A stretch of DNA of 64,000 nt, taken from NCBI RefSeq assembly GCF_046105845.1, contig NZ_CP151004.1, one strand, 5' to 3'. Each line of letters opens with the position of its first letter. Positions within the stretch are counted from its first letter, which is position 1. Shown piece by piece: positions 3,610 through 36,463 of this stretch. The notes under the pieces were generated by a model. The model was not told the DNA's origin. It searched no databases and saw only the letters and a list, made by a program, of their open reading frames with translations. The position numbers and the translations under genes are program-made. The DNA is from Escherichia coli. Its GTDB lineage: Bacteria > Pseudomonadota > Gammaproteobacteria > Enterobacterales > Enterobacteriaceae.

Positions 3610-5250
3610 TTACGCGTTTTTCAGAACTTCGCTAACAATCTCAACCGCTTCTTTCTCAATCTGCTTGCGATGTTCTTCCCCGAGGAAGCTTTCGCAATAA
3701 ATCTTGTACGCGTCTTCCGTGCCTGACGGACGCGCGGCGAACCAGCCGTTGTCAGTCATCACTTTCAGACCGCCAATAGAAGCACCGTTGCCCGGAGCAG
3801 CAGTCAGGCGTGCGGTGATCGGGTCACCTGCCAGGGTGCTGGCGCTCACCATTTCCGGAGACAGCTTAGACAGCGCCGCTTTTTGTGCGGAAGTCGCAGC
3901 TGCCTGCAAACGGTTGTAGCTCGGCGCACCAAAGCGTTTTGCCAGTTCGTTGTAGTGTTCCTGCGGGTTCTTACCGGTGACAGCGGTGATTTCCGCCGCC
4001 AGCAGACACATGATGATGCCGTCTTTGTCGGTGGACCACGGCGTGCCGTCGAAACGCAGGAAGGAAGCCCCTGCGCTCTCTTCGCCGCCAAAGCCGAAGC
4101 TGCCGTCGAACAGACCATCAACAAACCATTTGAAACCTACCGGGACTTCTACCAGCTTACGGCCCAAATCATTGACCACACGGTCGATCATCGCAGAAGA
4201 AACCAGCGTTTTACCGACAGCAACATCTTTGCCCCACTGCGGACGATGCTGGAACAGGTAGTTGATCGCCACCGCCAGGTAGTGGTTCGGATTCATCAAA
4301 CCTGCCGGAGTGACGATACCGTGACGGTCATAATCCGGGTCGTTAGCAAACGCCAGATCGAACTTATCACGCAGTGCCAGCAGGCCCGCCATCGCACACT
4401 CGGAGGAGCAGTCCATACGGATCGCGCCGTCTTTATCGAGGTGCATAAAGCGGAAGGTTTGATCGACCTGATCGTTAACGATGGTCAGGTTGAGGTTGTA
4501 ATACTCGCCAATGCGCTTCCAGTATTCGATACCGGAACCACCCAGCGGATCAACGCCCAGCGTCAGGCCCGCTTTCTGAATCGCCGCCATATCAACGATA
4601 TCGGCCAGCCCTTCCACAAACGGCTGCACCAGATCCTGCTCTTTCACATGACCGGATGCCATCGCTTCGTCGAGGGAGATACGCTTCACGCCTTTCAGGC
4701 CATCAGCCATCAGTGCGTTGGCCCTGTCTTCCACCACTTTAGTGACGTTGGTATCAGCCGGGCCACCATTTGGCGGATTGTACTTGATACCACCATCTTC
4801 CGGCGGGTTATGAGACGGTGTGATCACGATACCGTCTGCCAGCGGGCCACCTTTTTTATTGTGAACCAGGATGGCATTGGAAACGGCAGGCGTCGGGGTG
4901 AAGCCATTGTTTTCCTGCACAATGACATCAACGCCATTCGCTGCCAGCACTTCCAGTACGGAAATGAACGCAGGCTCGGACAGGGCGTGAGTATCTTTAC
5001 CCACATAGCAAGGGCCAGTGATGCCGTTTTTCGCACGTTCTTCAGCAATTGCCTGAGCGATCGCCAGAATGTGCGGCTCGTTAAAGCTGTGGCGCGCTGC
5101 ACTGCCACGGTGACCGGAAGTACCGAATTTCACCGCGTGCTCCGCATTCCCTGCTTCTGGTTTCAGTACATAATATTGCGCCGTCAGTTGGGCGACGTTA
5201 ATCAAATCACTCTGTTGTGCAGGTTGGCCTGCACGATTGTGGATTGCCAT
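3610..5250 (-). CDS. pgm: Phosphoglucomutase (546 aa)
   Basis: ORF 3610..5301; internal ATG at 5250 gives [22 protein letters not shown]...; TSGHRGS-type phosphoserine loop. Confidence 0.95.
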
Positions 5251-21407: not shown

Positions 21408-21484
21408 GGCTACGTAGCTCAGTTGGTTAGAGCACATCACTCATAATGATGGGGTCACAGGTTCGAATCCCGTCGTAGCCACCA
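21408..21484 (+). tRNA. metT: tRNA-Met (CAU), elongator
   Basis: GGCTACGTAGCTCAGTTGGTTAGAGC...CTCATAA anticodon loop...GTAGCCACCA; cloverleaf, encoded CCA. Confidence 0.9.
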
Positions 21485-21492
21485 TCTTTTTT

Positions 21493-21577
21493 GCGGGAGT
21501 GGCGAAATTGGTAGACGCACCAGATTTAGGTTCTGGCGCCGCAAGGTGTGCGAGTTCAAGTCTCGCCTCCCGCACCA
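21493..21577 (+). tRNA. leuW: tRNA-Leu (UAG), long variable arm
   Basis: GCGGGAGTGGCGAAATTGGTAGACGCACCAGATTTAGGTTCTGG...CGCACCA; anticodon TAG. Confidence 0.9.
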
Positions 21578-21600
21578 TTCACCAGAAAGCGTTGTACGGA

Positions 21601-21675
21601 TGGGGTATCGCCAAGCGGTAAGGCACCGGTTTTTGATACCGGCATTCCCTGGTTCGAATCCAGGTACCCCAGCCA
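21601..21675 (+). tRNA. glnU: tRNA-Gln (UUG)
   Basis: TGGGGTATCGCCAAGCGGTAAGGCACCGGTTTTTGATACCGG...CCCCAGCCA; anticodon TTG. Confidence 0.9.
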
Positions 21676-21709
21676 TCTTCTTCGAGTAAGCGGTTCACCG
21701 CCCGGTTAT

Positions 21710-21784
21710 TGGGGTATCGCCAAGCGGTAAGGCACCGGTTTTTGATACCGGCATTCCCTGGTTCGAATCCAGGTACCCCAGCCA
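21710..21784 (+). tRNA. glnW: tRNA-Gln (UUG), second copy
   Basis: Identical sequence to the copy at 21601. Confidence 0.9.
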
Positions 21785-21799
21785 TCGAAGAAACAATCT

Positions 21800-21876
21800 G
21801 GCTACGTAGCTCAGTTGGTTAGAGCACATCACTCATAATGATGGGGTCACAGGTTCGAATCCCGTCGTAGCCACCA
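21800..21876 (+). tRNA. metU: tRNA-Met (CAU), elongator, second copy
   Basis: Identical sequence to the copy at 21408. Confidence 0.9.
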
Positions 21877-21924
21877 AATTCTGAATGTGTCGAATAAGTT
21901 CGGCAAATTCACAAACCAATTTGT

Positions 21925-21999
21925 TGGGGTATCGCCAAGCGGTAAGGCACCGGATTCTGATTCCGGCATTCCGAGGTTCGAATCCTCGTACCCCAGCCA
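21925..21999 (+). tRNA. glnV: tRNA-Gln (CUG)
   Basis: TGGGGTATCGCCAAGCGGTAAGGCACCGGATTCTGATTCCGG...; anticodon CTG. Confidence 0.9.
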
Positions 22000-22036
22000 A
22001 TTTATTCAAGACGCTTACCTTGTAAGTGCACCCAGT

Positions 22037-22111
22037 TGGGGTATCGCCAAGCGGTAAGGCACCGGATTCTGATTCCGGCATTCCGAGGTTCGAATCCTCG
22101 TACCCCAGCCA
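22037..22111 (+). tRNA. glnX: tRNA-Gln (CUG), second copy
   Basis: Identical sequence to the copy at 21925. Confidence 0.9.
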
Positions 22112-27659: not shown

Positions 27660-29201
27660 ATGGCTTTTGCCTCATTAATTGAACGCCAGCGCATTCGCCT
27701 GCTGCTGGCGTTATTATTCGGTGCCTGCGGAACGCTGGCCTTCTCTCCTTACGATGTCTGGCCTGCGGCGATTATTTCGCTGATGGGGCTTCAGGCGCTG
27801 ACCTTTAACCGCCGTCCACTCCAGTCTGCCGCTATTGGCTTTTGCTGGGGATTTGGCCTCTTTGGCAGCGGTATTAACTGGGTCTATGTCAGCATCGCGA
27901 CTTTTGGCGGAATGCCTGGCCCGGTTAACATCTTCCTGGTGGTGCTGCTGGCGGCGTATTTGTCGCTGTATACCGGACTGTTTGCTGGCGTGCTGTCGCG
28001 CCTGTGGCCGAAAACCACCTGGCTGCGCGTGGCGATTGCCGCCCCTGCTCTCTGGCAAGTGACCGAGTTTCTGCGCGGTTGGGTGCTGACTGGTTTCCCG
28101 TGGTTACAGTTCGGCTATAGCCAGATTGATGGCCCGTTAAAAGGGCTGGCACCAATAATGGGCGTGGAAGCCATTAACTTCCTGCTAATGATGGTTAGCG
28201 GCCTGCTGGCACTGGCGTTGGTCAAACGCAACTGGCGTCCGCTGGCGGTGGCCGTCGTGCTGTTCGCCCTTCCCTTCCCGCTGCGTTACATCCAGTGGTT
28301 TACCCCGCAACCGGAGAAAACCATTCAGGTTTCGATGGTTCAGGGCGATATTCCGCAATCACTGAAATGGGACGGAGACCAGCTTCTTAATACGCTGAAG
28401 ATTTACTACAACGCAACGGCACCGCTGATGGGCAAATCATCGTTGATTATCTGGCCGGAGTCGGCGATAACCGATCTGGAAATTAATCAGCAACCGTTCC
28501 TCAAAGCACTGGACGGTGAGTTGCGCGATAAAGGTAGCTCGCTGGTAACCGGGATTGTTGACGCGCGTCTCAATAAGCAGAACCGCTACGATACTTACAA
28601 CACCATCATCACGCTGGGGAAAGGTGCGCCGTACAGCTACGAATCAGCCGATCGCTATAACAAAAACCATCTGGTGCCGTTTGGCGAGTTTGTCCCGCTG
28701 GAGTCGATTCTGCGTCCGTTAGCGCCGTTCTTTGATCTGCCGATGTCGTCGTTCAGCCGTGGGCCATATATCCAGCCACCGCTGTCGGTAAACGGTATTG
28801 AGCTTACTGCGGCTATTTGCTACGAGATCATTCTCGGCGAGCAAGTGCGTGATAACTTCCGCCCGGATACCGATTATCTGCTGACTATCTCCAACGATGC
28901 ATGGTTTGGTAAGTCTATTGGTCCATGGCAGCACTTCCAGATGGCGCGAATGCGTGCGCTGGAGTTGGCGCGCCCGCTACTGCGTAGCACCAACAACGGC
29001 ATTACGGCGGTGATTGGTCCGCAGGGTGAGATTCAGGCGATGATCCCGCAATTCACCCGCGAGGTGTTAACCACTAACGTGACGCCGACTACCGGACTTA
29101 CACCGTACGCACGTACCGGCAACTGGCCTCTGTGGGTGCTGACGGCACTGTTTGGTTTTGCTGCTGTGCTGATGAGTCTGCGTCAGCGACGTAAACGTTG
29201 A
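27660..29201 (+). CDS. lnt: Apolipoprotein N-acyltransferase Lnt (about 512 aa)
   Basis: [37 protein letters not shown]..., multi-TM N-terminus, CN-hydrolase domain. Confidence 0.95.
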
Positions 29202-29214
29202 GGTGAATGATGCG

Positions 29215-29249
29215 CTGGCCTGCAAAATTGCATCATTTTTGCAGGCCAG
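29215..29249. repeat. Perfect 13-bp inverted repeat just downstream of lnt
   Basis: CTGGCCTGCAAAA-ttgcatca-TTTTGCAGGCCAG; no U-tract on either strand. Confidence 0.6.
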
Positions 29250-29304
29250 ATAAACCGTTAACACCGCATCCGGTATCAACAAAACATACTTTCTCATTAA
29301 GCGG

Positions 29305-29332
29305 TGGGGCGTGATTATCATGCCCCTTTTTT
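29305..29332 (+). terminator. Rho-independent terminator (plus-strand orientation) abutting the stop of the minus-strand rhomboid gene
   Basis: GGGGCgtgattatcatGCCCCtttttt. Confidence 0.55.
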
Positions 29333-29333
29333 C

Positions 29334-31211
29334 TTACGGTTCAGGGATACAAGCCACATTGCCATATTGGGGATGACGAATAATTGCCTGCGGATCAAGC
29401 GAGCGCGTCCTGTCCAGTTGGATTAACCCGTTCTTCGCCATAACAAATATTTTTCTACCATCCGCTGAAAAACGAAGGTGATTAACGTAGCTGGCAGGAT
29501 AAACGCCAATAATCTGCCCGGCATTAATATTGAGCTGGATGACATAACCTTGCAGGCCATATGACACCAACGCTAAATATTGACCGTCCGGGCTAATACC
29601 CTCAACGGAATAAACGCTCCTGCTACACCATTGCGTCATAATACTGGCTTGTTGATCCTCAGCTCTTATACGTGAAATCCCCTGGCTATCGGCAAAAATA
29701 ATCTCTCCATTTTTTGGTCGGAATCCCATCGCAGAAACGACACCACGCGCATCACCTGCGGGAAAGTCTTCTTTCTGATGCGTGATGGTATTGATGCGTA
29801 CAATGTCACCTCTGACCATACCGGGTATCAACAATGTTTTTTCATCCGGGGAAAGTGCCATAACCCAGGCACCAGGTTTATTACTCGTCCCCGTCCCGTC
29901 GTATTTCTCCAGCGGGATATCCGCCACATGCTGATAAGTCACCAGATCAATGGCTGACACACTATTACTGGTGCGATTCATCACCCAAGCTTTTGTGCCA
30001 TCACGCGAGAGGATAAGACTGTCAGGATGTGCACCGGTGGTAATCGACTGAATAATCTCCCCCGTCGCCACGTTAATGACCGATAACGCATTCGCTTCAA
30101 ATGAAGTCGCATAAAGCAACGTTTCATCCGGGCTTAGCGCCAGCGATCTGACGCCCTGATCTTTACAGCCACCACAATGTTTGACTGACTTTTCTTTCGC
30201 TATGGGGGCTGTAAAGGTATGCAGGATTTTCTTTTGTCCGAGGTCGAAAACAACAATGCTGTTGGTGTTTTCAATTGCGGCATACAACGTATTACCATCC
30301 CGACTGATCGCCATATCATGGATATCGGAAATCTCAGCGAGCAAATCACCACTGGCCTGTTCACGACTTACCGGAGCGGATAATGTTTCCCTGAGGGCGT
30401 TGCGTTCCTCCGCTAACTGCTGCTTTTTTTGCCGTCGCTCTTGTTCAATCTCCTGTGGATAAAACTCTTCACGCAGGCTTTGCCTGACTTGTAAAACTGA
30501 CTCACCCATCTGCTGCTGCGCAAGCCAGATAGCCCCGGTCAGAAGAAGACTACCCGCAACAATAATCCCGCCTTCCGTAACAAGCCGGTTTTGCCCATAT
30601 AAACGCGCACTCAGCCCCCCCATCGCGCCACCCGCAATCAGGCCGCCAATGTGGCAAGCGTTATCTATTCCTGTTTGCCGGGCACCGTACAACAGTGTCA
30701 GCGCCACCATACCCAGCAGAGGAAATACTCGCCGCTGGTTTTTATGGTGTGTGCCCGCACCTGAAGCAAGCTGTGTTGCTATCGCAGCGCCAGCTATTCC
30801 CATAATCGCCCCGGATGCCCCAACGCTGATGACTATCTGCTCACTTTCGCGTAACGCATAACAGGCACTGATTAGCCCACCAAAGACGCCGGAGAATAAC
30901 CAGATAATCAGAAGTCGCCATTTCCCCAGTATCCGCTCCGCCACTGCCCCCACCACCAGAAGTGCAAACATATTCATCAGCAAATGGGGAAAACTACTGT
31001 GCAGAAAGACACTGCTCAATAAGCGCCAGGATTCGCCCGACAACGTGAGAGAAGTAACGTTAGCACCGAGATGGATGAGTGCGGATTGATCGACTTCTTC
31101 ATAACTCATCCATTGTGCGAGGTAACAAAATATCCCAACACAGAGCGCAAAAAGGATAAGGGTTATTGCGGGTAATTGAACATTTAACGGCTTAACCGAA
31201 GATGCAGACAT
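29334..31211 (-). CDS. Rhomboid-family intramembrane serine protease (7 TM) fused via a charged linker to a C-terminal YVTN/YncE-like beta-propeller (625 aa); not a gene I recognise from E. coli K-12
   Basis: Single 625-codon ORF. N-terminal residues 1-235: rhomboid motifs WR (62-63), HxxxN (H76, N80), GASG with catalytic Ser133, ACHIGG with His187, plus seventh hydrophobic helix 216-232. Residues 240-285 charged (EEFYPQEIEQERRQKKQQLAEERNALRE). Residues 286-625: about seven repeats of [LI]S[PR]DG..[LI]...N......[IV]D-type beta-strand blades. Confidence 0.85.
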   Translation of the reverse strand: MSASSVKPLNVQLPAITLILFALCVGIFCYLAQWMSYEEVDQSALIHLGANVTSLTLSGESWRLLSSVFLHSSFPHLLMNMFALLVVGAVAERILGKWRLLIIWLFSGVFGGLISACYALRESEQIVISVGASGAIMGIAGAAIATQLASGAGTHHKNQRRVFPLLGMVALTLLYGARQTGIDNACHIGGLIAGGAMGGLSARLYGQNRLVTEGGIIVAGSLLLTGAIWLAQQQMGESVLQVRQSLREEFYPQEIEQERRQKKQQLAEERNALRETLSAPVSREQASGDLLAEISDIHDMAISRDGNTLYAAIENTNSIVVFDLGQKKILHTFTAPIAKEKSVKHCGGCKDQGVRSLALSPDETLLYATSFEANALSVINVATGEIIQSITTGAHPDSLILSRDGTKAWVMNRTSNSVSAIDLVTYQHVADIPLEKYDGTGTSNKPGAWVMALSPDEKTLLIPGMVRGDIVRINTITHQKEDFPAGDARGVVSAMGFRPKNGEIIFADSQGISRIRAEDQQASIMTQWCSRSVYSVEGISPDGQYLALVSYGLQGYVIQLNINAGQIIGVYPASYVNHLRFSADGRKIFVMAKNGLIQLDRTRSLDPQAIIRHPQYGNVACIPEP

Positions 31212-31368
31212 AAGGTGTTTCTTCCTTGAAAAGACAGGTAAAAAGCATTTTTCCCGTGTGCAGTTATCATCCCGGCAAACGTCCCATGCCGAAAAGATAA
31301 CTCTGTCCGAAATATGACTTTTTCAGCCTAAAATTACAATCGTAATTAATTCATCCCTAAGTATTTTT

Positions 31369-31384
31369 TGGCATGTAAGTTGCT
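31369..31384 (+). promoter_or_regulatory. Candidate sigma54 (-24/-12) promoter directed toward gltI
   Basis: TGGCATgtaagTTGCT: GG and GC elements at the consensus spacing of TGGCACG-N4-TTGCA. Confidence 0.4.
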
Positions 31385-31451
31385 TTATTTACTGTGTAAG
31401 CAATGAAATCAGCCGCGACGCAACCGGGTTGCACCACCACAAATCAGCGGT

Positions 31452-31468
31452 AGCACCAAAAAGGTGCA
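31452..31468. promoter_or_regulatory. Candidate NtrC (GlnG) enhancer site in the rhomboid-gltI divergent region
   Basis: aGCACCAaaaaGGTGCA matches TGCACCA-N3-TGGTGCA at 15 of 17 positions; further GCACC/GGTGC half-sites at 31430-31436 and 31491-31496. Confidence 0.45.
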
Positions 31469-31665
31469 GTTTAAGAATTTTGCTTCGGAATGGTGCGGCG
31501 CAACTCGCAAAAACAAACAATAAAACAGCAATATCTTTACATTTAGCCAAACTAAATGTTACCTAACAGGCACAACACTGCACAATAAAGTTGCAGACGA
31601 TAACAACACAAACACTCACAACGGGTATCCATGCGTTCTTAACGCAGAAGATAAAGGAGTTGGAT

Positions 31666-32574
31666 ATGCAATTACGTAAACCTGCCACAGCAATCCTGGC
31701 CCTGGCGCTTTCCGCAGGACTGGCACAGGCAGATGACGCCGCCCCGGCAGCGGGCAGTACGCTGGACAAAATCGCCAAAAACGGTGTGATTGTCGTCGGT
31801 CACCGTGAATCTTCAGTACCTTTCTCTTATTACGACAATCAGCAAAAAGTGGTGGGTTACTCGCAGGATTACTCCAACGCCATTGTTGAAGCAGTGAAAA
31901 AGAAACTCAACAAACCAGACTTGCAGGTGAAACTGATTCCGATCACCTCACAAAACCGTATTCCACTGCTGCAAAACGGCACTTTCGATTTTGAATGTGG
32001 TTCTACCACCAACAACGTCGAACGCCAAAAACAGGCGGCTTTCTCTGACACTATTTTCGTGGTCGGTACGCGCCTGTTGACCAAAAAGGGTGGCGATATC
32101 AAAGATTTCGCCGATCTGAAAGGCAAAGCCGTAGTCGTCACTTCCGGCACTACCTCTGAAGTTTTGCTCAACAAACTGAATGAAGAGCAAAAAATGAATA
32201 TGCGAATTATCAGCGCCAAAGATCACGGTGACTCTTTCCGCACCCTGGAAAGCGGTCGTGCCGTTGCCTTTATGATGGATGATGCTCTGCTGGCTGGTGA
32301 ACGTGCGAAAGCGAAGAAACCAGACAACTGGGAAATCGTCGGCAAGCCGCAGTCTCAGGAAGCCTACGGTTGTATGTTGCGTAAAGACGATCCGCAGTTC
32401 AAAAAGCTGATGGATGACACTATCGCTCAGGTGCAGACCTCCGGTGAAGCGGAAAAATGGTTTGATAAATGGTTCAAAAATCCCATTCCGCCGAAAAACC
32501 TGAACATGAATTTCGAACTGTCGGACGAAATGAAAGCACTGTTCAAAGAACCGAATGACAAAGCACTGAACTAA
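31666..32574 (+). CDS. gltI: Glutamate/aspartate ABC transporter periplasmic binding protein GltI (302 aa)
   Basis: ORF 31591..32574; ATG 31666 preceded by AAGGAG gives MQLRKPATAILALALSAGLAQA... signal peptide. Confidence 0.95.
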   Translation: MQLRKPATAILALALSAGLAQADDAAPAAGSTLDKIAKNGVIVVGHRESSVPFSYYDNQQKVVGYSQDYSNAIVEAVKKKLNKPDLQVKLIPITSQNRIPLLQNGTFDFECGSTTNNVERQKQAAFSDTIFVVGTRLLTKKGGDIKDFADLKGKAVVVTSGTTSEVLLNKLNEEQKMNMRIISAKDHGDSFRTLESGRAVAFMMDDALLAGERAKAKKPDNWEIVGKPQSQEAYGCMLRKDDPQFKKLMDDTIAQVQTSGEAEKWFDKWFKNPIPPKNLNMNFELSDEMKALFKEPNDKALN

Positions 32575-32577
32575 TTA

Positions 32578-32731
32578 CAAGAACCAGGGGCGGAAATTCC
32601 AGCCCTCTCGATTGTTACGTAGCACGGACAGACTATACGCCTGATGGTCGTTCCCCATCGGGCCTGAAAACCGCAATACGCTGGGTAACAATCTTCGAGG
32701 GTAGCAGTTAACGCTGCTACCCTCTTTTTTC
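32578..32731 (+). ncRNA. sroC: SroC sRNA (GcvB sponge) processed from the gltI-gltJ spacer
   Basis: Conserved gltI-gltJ intergenic region ending in terminator GGGTAGCAGttaacGCTGCTACCCtctttttt; position matches the known SroC locus. Confidence 0.6.
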
Positions 32732-32743
32732 TGGAGTAGATTT

Positions 32744-35000: not shown

Positions 35001-35936
35001 ATGGCACTGCCAATTCTGTTAGATTGCGACCCAGGTCATGACGACGCTATCGCAATAGTTCTCGCCCTCGCCTCACCAGAGCTTGATGTCAAAGCAATTA
35101 CGTCTTCCGCCGGAAACCAGACACCAGAAAAAACCTTACGCAATGTTCTGCGTATGCTGACCTTGCTTAATCGCACCGATATTCCGGTAGCAGGCGGCGC
35201 GGTAAAACCGTTAATGCGTGAGTTGATTATCGCGGACAATGTGCACGGCGAAAGCGGTCTCGACGGCCCGGCATTACCGGAACCGACGTTCGCACCGCAA
35301 AACTGTACGGCGGTAGAGCTGATGGCGAAAACACTACGTGAAAGTGCGGAACCTGTCACGATTGTTTCTACCGGACCGCAAACTAACGTTGCCTTGCTGC
35401 TCAATAGCCACCCGGAACTGCATAGCAAAATTGCCCGTATCGTGATTATGGGCGGTGCAATGGGGCTTGGTAACTGGACGCCTGCGGCTGAATTTAATAT
35501 TTACGTTGACCCGGAAGCGGCAGAAATTGTCTTCCAGTCAGGGATCCCGGTGGTGATGGCCGGTCTGGATGTTACTCACAAAGCACAAATTCACGTTGAG
35601 GACACCGAGCGTTTCCGCGCCATTGGCAACCCTGTTTCAACCATTGTTGCCGAACTGCTGGATTTCTTCCTCGAATATCATAAAGACGAAAAATGGGGCT
35701 TTGTCGGCGCACCGCTGCATGACCCATGCACCATCGCCTGGCTGTTAAAACCGGAGTTGTTTACCACTGTTGAGCGCTGGGTTGGCGTGGAAACACAAGG
35801 GAAATATACCCAGGGTATGACGGTTGTTGATTATTATTATCTGACCGGCAATAAACCGAATGCTACTGTAATGGTCGATGTTGATCGTCAGGGCTTTGTT
35901 GATTTACTGGCTGATCGTCTGAAATTTTACGCTTAA
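35001..35936 (+). CDS. rihA: Pyrimidine-specific ribonucleoside hydrolase RihA (311 aa)
   Basis: ORF 34968..35936; ATG 35001 gives [22 protein letters not shown]..., DxDxxxDD nucleoside hydrolase motif. Confidence 0.95.
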
Positions 35937-35942
35937 TCACTC

Positions 35943-35967
35943 GCCGGATGACATCACGCCATCCGGC
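35943..35967. repeat. Short REP-like hairpin in the 44-bp rihA-ybeL spacer
   Basis: GCCGGATGacatcacgcCATCCGGC. Confidence 0.4.
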
Positions 35968-35980
35968 ACCACTCATTTCA

Positions 35981-36463
35981 TTAAGGCTCGAACGGGCGTC
36001 TCTGGAACTGGTCATGACCACATTTCGGGCATAGCGTCAGCACTTCCGGTGTATAGATCGGGAGATGGAAATGACATTTCTCGCAGACCAGATTTCCCAG
36101 CCCTACCACTTCTCCGCTGTGATAAACCCCGTGATGATTGAGGTCCTGGAAAACTTCGCGCCATTCAAGCTGCGTTTTATCGGTGATGTCTGCCAGCTCC
36201 TGCCACAAGCTTTCTTTAATCACCCGCATAAAGACGCTGTCAGACTCTTCTTTCAGGCTCTCTTCATAGCTCATGGCGAACTCTTCCAGGTCACGTCTGA
36301 CAGCTCGCGTCAGCTCATCGACTTCGGTTCGCGTTAACTCCCCTGTTTTTATTACGCGCTCGCGCGCCTGTTCCACCAGTGCGTCGATATCACGTTCGCC
36401 ATTGCGCAGGCGTTCGCTCAGTGACGCGACCAGTTCACGGTAATATTGAGCAACCTTGTTCAT
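35981..36463 (-). CDS. ybeL: DUF1451 zinc-ribbon protein YbeL (160 aa)
   Basis: ORF MNKVAQYYRELVASLSERLRNGERDIDALVEQ..., C-terminal CxxC...CPxCG. Confidence 0.9.
   Translation of the reverse strand: MNKVAQYYRELVASLSERLRNGERDIDALVEQARERVIKTGELTRTEVDELTRAVRRDLEEFAMSYEESLKEESDSVFMRVIKESLWQELADITDKTQLEWREVFQDLNHHGVYHSGEVVGLGNLVCEKCHFHLPIYTPEVLTLCPKCGHDQFQRRPFEP

Follow-up and report, generated by a model that had tools for sequence, protein, structure and literature searches.

The closest described relative of the gene considered here is rhom7 of Shigella sonnei (SSON_0610, UniProt Q3Z4D6), which encodes a rhomboid protease that cuts the transmembrane (TM) segments of HybA and FdnH, orphan subunits of respiratory complexes (Liu et al., EMBO J 2020, PMC7232013). 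A TatA-based substrate is no longer cleaved when the protease carries S133A or H187A, and an S. sonnei double mutant had no phenotype (PMC7232013). The same paper never calls the C-terminal domain of the protein a β-propeller (the word is absent), and presence/absence polymorphism is not discussed in it. We analysed a 64,000-nucleotide stretch of Escherichia coli DNA (contig NZ_CP151004.1; the whole stretch is referred to here as the window). Between the core genes lnt (apolipoprotein N-acyltransferase; 27660–29201, plus strand, 513 amino acids) and gltI (glutamate/aspartate ABC transporter binding protein; 31666–32574, plus strand), it contains a gene for a 625-amino-acid rhomboid-family intramembrane serine protease (MEROPS S54; 29334–31211, minus strand).

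On sequence grounds, this gene is the E. coli ortholog of S. sonnei rhom7 and encodes a rhomboid protease with a predicted Ser133/His187 dyad. The assignment follows from 93% identity over the full length (582 of 625 residues, with the same domain order), the shared slot between gltI and lnt, and the same catalytic residues. The orientation on the S. sonnei contig is that of the window, and both proteins have S133 and H187, seven predicted TM helices and a C-terminal domain. The differences from the S. sonnei variant that we compared, 43 substitutions and a one-residue indel, are allelic only. The gene is already known: its product is an experimentally validated rhomboid protease in S. sonnei, and RefSeq routinely annotates it as an intact coding sequence in E. 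coli genomes. It is therefore not to be treated as an unexplained insertion.

We propose, with a probability of roughly 65%, that the rhom7 block is one of two old alleles of the lnt–gltI junction that are swapped by homologous recombination, and that K-12 carries the other, empty allele with an added copy of the insertion sequence (IS) IS5. Both alleles would predate the diversification of E. coli and would pass between lineages through crossovers in the 3′ end of lnt and in the gltI leader. The empty configuration would be the ancestral, family-wide type, the cassette having probably entered, or been retained in, Escherichia before E. coli radiated.

Two states of the lnt–gltI junction

Among 5426 complete E. 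coli genomes, rhom7 is present in 3237, as a single copy that is full length in 3232 of them and that lies between lnt and gltI in every inspected row of the census. The empty junction, found in 2184, is one common 104-nt sequence, and the two states together cover 5421 of the 5426 genomes. The site thus has two states, not many, in E. coli, and the boundaries are the same in all aligned alleles of each class. A preliminary description of this DNA, made from the sequence alone, had called the locus a recurrent variable site. Variable it is (3237 versus 2184 of 5426), but two states and one empty junction give no support to recurrent hits. One partial rhom7, in strain BS-01 (NZ_CP172816.1, 3640–5190), was considered as an independent deletion and set aside: its middle is poly-C-rich and of low complexity, the adjoining lnt is flagged as partial, and the allele is likely to be an assembly artefact.

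The preliminary description had also stated that K-12 carries an IS5 copy and no such gene at this junction, and this is what we found in strains DSM 498, J53 and 3A. The IS5 has a CTAA target duplication, equivalent to positions 31563–31566 of the window, and the K-12 state is the empty allele with a later IS5. A K-12-derived transconjugant (NZ_CP110859.1) has IS5 after lnt, then DLP12 prophage genes (quuD, rusA, ybcO and others) in place of gltI; this junction is an IS5-associated rearrangement in a laboratory derivative.

The occupied block is about 2.2 kb long, from window position 29196 to approximately 31427, and the empty allele has about 160 bp instead. The left boundary of the block lies inside the last codons of lnt, where BLAST homology to empty alleles ends at 29195. 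Empty alleles end in CGACGTAAATAA, giving the Lnt tail …SLRQRRK*, and occupied alleles with a 77-bp spacer after lnt end in GCACGTAAACGTTGA, giving …SLRARKR*. The end of lnt in the window (29178–29201) reads CTGCGTCAGCGACGTAAA followed by CGTTGA, and its product has the tail …LRQRRKR* and 513 amino acids instead of 512. This tail, which is common to AST215, isolate 624 and PMV-1, is an exact chimera, empty-type through CGTAAA and occupied-type thereafter, with the join at a shared ACGTAAA. At the other end, the haplotype-specific part of the rhom7–gltI intergenic region (31212–31427, delimited by sequence alignment) begins with a segment that has no clear counterpart in empty alleles (31212–31368). 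It continues with 59 nt (31369–31427) that do have homology to empty alleles, at an identity of only about 51%; the score of this homology was reached by 0 of 2000 shuffles. Beyond it, the shared gltI leader (31428–31665, plus strand) forms the right-hand recombination flank, in which occupied and empty alleles are 4.9–8.2% divergent.

The flanks of the block are mosaic. Compared with the empty strain 23AR0303, the window has 1 single-nucleotide polymorphism (SNP) in 28400–29050 and 12 SNPs in 29051–29197, and divergence is back to background after about 31470. Diversity peaks at the junction, in the 3′ end of lnt (up to 8.9%) and the gltI leader (up to 8.2%), as against 0.3–1.8% in miaB–corC, where the window is 1.3–1.8% divergent from other strains, as is ordinary for E. 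coli. Over the final 150 nt of lnt, the distances of E. marmotae from E. coli strains lie inside the range seen between E. coli strains. Near-identical outer flanks also occur with different occupancy: RM10466, 07_3986 and GN4741 carry rhom7, and M505 has the empty junction. The preliminary description had left the mode of gain or loss unclear. Because of the mosaic flanks, the chimeric lnt tail and the differing occupancy within similar outer flanks, it is most simply explained by allelic replacement, probably through homologous recombination that acts in lnt on one side and in the gltI leader on the other.

Exchange through conserved flanks would also account for the lack of mobility signatures, which the preliminary description had reported correctly. 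The interval 29202–31665 contains a single substantial open reading frame (ORF), convergent to lnt and divergent from gltI, and neither an integrase, a recombinase nor a transposase gene was found in it; nor were terminal inverted repeats or a target-site duplication of the IS or transposon kind. A search of the flanks yielded no convincing direct repeats, the sole family that spans the border being a 13-nt, 92% match of chance size. This repeat, GTAGCACCAA(C/A)AA at 28984 and 31450, was rejected as a deletion or insertion scar, as it is chance-sized and lies off the block boundaries (29196 and about 31427). No tRNA gene adjoins the interval. The nearest form a plus-strand cluster of seven (Met, Leu, Gln ×2, Met, Gln ×2) at 21408–22111, about 7 kb away, which is not associated with the rhom7 block. 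In mobility genes, attachment (att) targets and repeats, the locus thus lacks what marks genomic islands and integrative elements or IS elements and transposons.

The composition of the gene is slightly low. The preliminary description had counted about 46% G+C in 29341–29540 and thought it slightly low; the value is 0.46 exactly, and the G+C content is 0.495 for rhom7, 0.476 for the interval and 0.515 for the whole window. At third codon positions, the G+C content (GC3) of rhom7 is 0.489, compared with 0.572 ± 0.052 for 50 ORFs of the window (z about −1.6). The value belongs to the low tail without leaving the range of the window, in which rihA has 0.503 and four other ORFs fall below 0.50. 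The codon-bias distance of rhom7 (+1.1 standard deviations) is similarly towards the low tail, yet inside the spread of the window's genes.

Age and origin of the two alleles

To place the gene in time, synonymous divergence (dS) and the ratio of nonsynonymous to synonymous divergence (omega) were estimated by the Nei–Gojobori method, with each sequence compared against the window. Among E. coli, rhom7 has a dS of 0.11–0.17 and an omega of about 0.2, with its membrane, linker and propeller parts alike. The corresponding values are 0.08–0.17 and 0.01–0.09 for lnt, 0.08–0.15 and 0.01–0.03 for gltI, and 0.10–0.15 and 0–0.06 for gltJ. Against the cryptic-clade Escherichia sp. MOD1-EC7003, the dS of rhom7 is 0.23 and that of the flanks 0.20–0.34. 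The nucleotide diversity of rhom7 within E. coli is 4–7%. The protein is 93.6–95.4% identical within E. coli (flanking proteins, 98–100%) and 51–54% identical to its Klebsiella counterparts (flanking proteins, 83–95%). The gene is under purifying selection and has diverged in step with its neighbours, with a faster protein clock. The parity of its dS with that of lnt and gltI therefore indicates that rhom7 has been at this site for at least as long as the diversity of E. coli.

These data bear directly on the view in the preliminary description that the gene is an insertion into the genome. A recent arrival in this strain or lineage, by some unrecognised mobile or site-specific mechanism, would fit the slightly low G+C and GC3, the orientation of rhom7 opposite to both lnt and gltI, and its absence from K-12, E. 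marmotae and Salmonella. Yet 60% of E. coli carry the gene, with the diversity given above and a dS equal to that of the flanks, and the occupied state, that of the majority, also occurs in the cryptic clade and in Klebsiella. The position is constant and the copy single, no repeats, tRNA, integrase or transposase accompany it, and in composition it does not fall outside the window's own genes. Parity of dS and the census effectively refute recent insertion, which we regard as extremely improbable.

Outside E. coli, occupancy was read from Lnt homologues and from the genomic context of exact proteins. Escherichia sp. MOD1-EC7003, K. aerogenes, K. huaxiensis and Klebsiella sp. all have the gene in the same slot, facing the same way. 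E. marmotae and Salmonella enterica (one representative each) lack a gene at this junction, and their lnt–gltI spacers align with the empty allele of E. coli. In K. aerogenes, the common Lnt ends in …MSLRQRRR and the rhom7-linked Lnt in …MSLRSRKR, so that a second genus would share both the dimorphism and its left breakpoint. The distribution of Rhom7 is patchy, comprising Escherichia, some Klebsiella and two further lineages, and a homologue in Budvicia (31% identical) occupies a different genomic slot. Among database matches at 57–91% identity there was no named Rhom7 homologue from Salmonella, Citrobacter, Enterobacter or K. pneumoniae. Two sets of sequences were discounted. Lnt matches at 90–92% identity, considered as E. 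albertii or E. fergusonii, proved to be error-laden E. coli assemblies, and a Rhom7 labelled 'E. fergusonii' has E. coli-like flanks (corC dS 0.066) and was given no weight for occupancy in E. fergusonii.

The homologous 59-nt segment upstream of gltI separates the two classes deeply. Occupied Escherichia alleles, with the cryptic clade included, share 56–59 of the 59 positions and empty Escherichia alleles 51–58, as against 29–32 between occupied and empty alleles; the next 51 nt match at 39–46 positions between the classes. Empty alleles share 40–44 of the 59 positions with Salmonella, and occupied alleles 30–31. The locus shows the features of an ancient trans-species polymorphism: two classes at intermediate frequency, each shared across species or genera, a divergence between the classes that is greater than that within species, and raised diversity in the flanks.

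Which state came first is a separate question. One possible, though unlikely, history is that rhom7 has been resident since the common ancestor of Escherichia and Klebsiella and was inherited vertically. The empty state, that of K-12 included, would then derive from one ancient deletion spread by recombination or from several. In that case rhom7 would be a decaying core gene, and the scenario that the preliminary description had named as its own refutation, with the gene in all close relatives and K-12 derived, would be essentially right. Ancestral presence with loss is favoured by the slot and orientation shared between Klebsiella and Escherichia and by the equality of dS in rhom7 and its flanks. 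It is also favoured by the ratio of nonsynonymous divergence (dN) in rhom7 to that in lnt, which is about 3 among E. coli and again when E. coli is compared with Klebsiella, as expected from co-divergence. In addition, the 24 nt after the lnt stop codon in empty alleles resemble 31264–31287 of the window and could be a deletion remnant, although 20 of 2000 shuffles score equally. Against such residence, all 2184 of 2184 empty E. coli have one junction, which E. marmotae also has and which is homologous in Salmonella, so that these close relatives lack the gene and have a junction of the K-12 type. Across about 15 enterobacterial genera, the consensus Lnt tail is the one that accompanies the empty state (…RQRR[KR]), a pattern that independent deletions cannot explain. 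Moreover, the empty 59-nt segment looks vertically related to that of Salmonella, and the occupied one is an outlier though near-invariant within Escherichia; the database matches at 57–91% identity included no named Rhom7 homologue from the four taxa listed above; and pseudogenised copies were not seen (3232 of 3237 are full length). The family-wide Lnt tail, the Salmonella-like 59-mer and the patchy distribution of Rhom7 favour the empty state as ancestral.

Several points nevertheless weigh against two old alleles exchanged by recombination, with the empty one ancestral. The constant dN ratio fits vertical descent and weakens the case for import of the cassette into Escherichia. The outgroup sample is thin, E. 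marmotae and Salmonella having a single representative each, and the junction DNA of E. albertii, verified E. fergusonii, Citrobacter, Enterobacter and K. pneumoniae lies outside the comparison. The emptiness of typical K. aerogenes is judged from cluster sizes and not from DNA, polymorphism within phylogroups is judged from flank similarity only, and the argument for deep divergence is based on short segments (59 nt and 4–5 codons).

The region upstream of gltI may bear on why two alleles persist. A sigma-54-type motif directed towards gltI, TGGCAT-N5-TTGCT (31369–31384, plus strand), precedes the gltI ATG by about 290 bp. It is the only match in the window, where 0.36 are expected by chance, and the position of TGGCA(C/T)-N5-TTGC is conserved in Escherichia, Salmonella and Klebsiella, with TGGCAT in occupied and TGGCAC in empty alleles. 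Salmonella gltIJKL is listed as an NtrC/sigma-54 operon (PMC4987338), and the motif may act as the sigma-54 promoter of gltI. An NtrC-consensus-like sequence, GCACC-N5-GGTGCA, occurs in the gltI leader at 31453–31468; it is downstream, not upstream, of the sigma-54-type motif, an unusual order if both are functional.

The dimorphism might accordingly be kept by selection on the regulation of gltIJKL, with rhom7 as a passenger and with alleles that may express the transporter differently. The block boundary lies downstream of the conserved motif, so that the occupied block replaces the 59 nt and everything upstream, and the near-invariance of the occupied 59 nt, even against the cryptic clade, points to constraint; the Salmonella regulon listing agrees with this idea. 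However, a gene with an omega of about 0.2 that is almost never disrupted is not a neutral passenger, and the sigma-54 assignment is by motif only. We consider this explanation highly improbable. Somewhat less doubtful, but still speculative, is that the cassette and the empty allele form a trans-genus dimorphism maintained by selection, with breakpoints conserved between Escherichia and Klebsiella and with a rhomboid protease of quality control coupled to an alternative, putative sigma-54 gltI leader. If this were true, the polymorphism would be a natural 60/40 experiment on what bacterial rhomboids are for.

Architecture of Rhom7 and features nearby

The preliminary description had recognised a single rhomboid-propeller gene on the strand opposite to both neighbours, and Pfam and YVTN matches to the one ORF bear this out. 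Rhom7 would be a seven-TM rhomboid in which TM7 and a long linker tether a seven-bladed YVTN propeller, presumably in the periplasm. The match to Pfam Rhomboid PF01694 (E = 1.4e-27; residues 59–199, model positions 2–138 of 143) and the alignment define the catalytic core (30615–31037, minus strand), which is part of TM1–TM6 (residues 15–203). W62-R63 (loop L1), H76 and N80 (TM2), G131-A-S133-G (TM4) and H187-x-G-G (TM6) do not vary among 14 aligned homologues that extend to 25% identity. S133 sits in GASG and H187 in HIGG, with the same numbering as the catalytic residues of Rhom7 (PMC7232013).

An AlphaFold2 model of the protein (mean predicted local distance difference test score, pLDDT, of 80.6) has seven TM helices, a long helical linker and the propeller. 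In the model, TM1–TM6 span residues 15–32, 74–95, 97–122, 132–149, 152–178 and 184–203. The model and hydropathy together place TM7 at residues 209–233 and a long charged helical linker at residues 237–276 (30384–30587, minus strand). The C-terminal domain (residues 289–600; 29412–30347, minus strand) is predicted from profile, fold and sequence matches to be a seven-bladed YVTN-type β-propeller. It matches the TIGR02276 YVTN repeat above the cut-off of that model (E = 5e-16), and its top match in the Protein Data Bank (PDB) is 1l0q both by fold (Foldseek, E = 6e-17) and by sequence (phmmer, E = 1e-24). Rhomboid topology plus a seventh TM helix would put the propeller in the periplasm, with which the conserved cysteines of the 14-homologue alignment are compatible (C529 and C621, invariant or nearly so, and a CxxC at 347–350). 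In a search with the C-terminal 390 amino acids against 1.84 billion representatives, giant YVTN-repeat proteins dominate, and only two clusters are co-linear with the query, the E. coli type and the Klebsiella type. A PADLOC search of the protein returned no defence-system match.

The end of lnt (29201) and the gltI ATG (31666) agree with the RefSeq annotation of homologous loci. Occupied alleles differ only in the lnt–rhom7 spacer, which has three forms. The lnt–rhom7 spacer of the window (132 bp, 29202–29333) is a minority variant, found in 192 of the 5426 genomes, compared with about 1698 genomes for the 77-bp form and at least 879, the type strain ATCC 11775 among them, for a 126-bp form. 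It contains a hairpin at 29215–29249 (an inverted repeat with 16-nt arms, 94% complementary) and then a shared terminator hairpin at 29306–29326, followed by a T-run. Only the 126-bp form carries GCCTGATGCGCGACGCTTATCAGGCCTAC, which we take to be a canonical repetitive extragenic palindromic (REP) sequence (PMV-1 and Ecol_276; loci 4500–4628). The hairpin of the window differs from it and was rejected as a multi-copy REP element, being present as a single copy per genome by near-exact search. An Rfam search of the interval 29202–31665 found no family. Further along, the gltI–gltJ spacer contains the small RNA sroC (Rfam RF00369, 174.8 bits; 32570–32732), as expected for the operon.

A second presence/absence site lies about 4 kb from the rhom7 interval. 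In the window, PMV-1 and 23AR0303, ybeL (35981–36463, minus strand; region 35937–36463) directly follows rihA, and in K-12-like, B1-like and other strains hscC follows rihA, the alignments being non-homologous from about 35950; the variable element is the hscC-side cluster. The gene rihA itself (35001–35936) falls into two deep E. coli haplotype groups, with the window, PMV-1 and 23AR0303 about 5–7% from other strains. No rihA could be aligned from the E. marmotae representative, where a Transposase_mut gene takes its place.

Comparison with known rhomboids and accessory loci

Beyond the literature that we searched, the results describe a clean E. coli dimorphism in which about 60% of genomes have rhom7 and about 40% lack it, with K-12 on the minority side, and indicate that both alleles are older than the species, with breakpoints that recur in Klebsiella. 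They also add the prediction, from modelling, that the C-terminal domain of Rhom7 is a seven-bladed YVTN propeller. The physiology of bacterial rhomboids is poorly defined, and the polymorphism could support association studies with host, niche and anaerobic respiration.

Among proteins of solved structure, GlpG (E. coli and H. influenzae; PDB 2ic8 and 2nr9) is the best relative of the Rhom7 membrane core, sharing the motifs WR, HxxxN, GxSG and HxGG. Residues 13–205 match 2nr9 by sequence (E = 1e-9) and also match TIGR04239. Identity as GlpG was rejected, as the scores are far under the equivalog cut-offs of TIGR04239 and NF008155 (41.8 bits versus 250, and 37 versus 335). The two also differ in architecture, GlpG having six TM helices with a cytoplasmic domain at the N terminus and Rhom7 having TM7 and the C-terminal propeller. 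Identity as a rhombosortase (TIGR03902) was likewise rejected, at 46.6 bits against a curated cut-off of 84. Rhomboids of the Bacillus subtilis YqgP/GluP type have a rhomboid core, an extra TM helix and an extracytoplasmic TPR domain. They resemble Rhom7 in the order of core, further TM helix and C-terminal repeat domain, the repeats being TPR there and a YVTN propeller in Rhom7. Many such proteins are the next-best database matches, with similarity in the rhomboid domain only (24–45% query coverage). The propeller is closest, in structure and in sequence, to 1l0q, a surface-layer (S-layer) protein of Methanosarcina mazei; identity is only 19%, 1l0q is a free-standing S-layer module with PKD domains, and its function is not transferable.

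As a locus, the lnt–gltI junction is of a known kind, an accessory allele between core genes that is probably exchanged by flanking homologous recombination. E. coli has accessory hotspots flanked by core genes, such as the polymorphic mutS–rpoS region, that are exchanged in this way. The junction resembles them in presence/absence between two core genes, the lack of mobility genes, mosaic flanks and raised linked diversity. Unlike those hotspots, with their many cargoes, it has two alleles, one gene and breakpoints conserved between genera.

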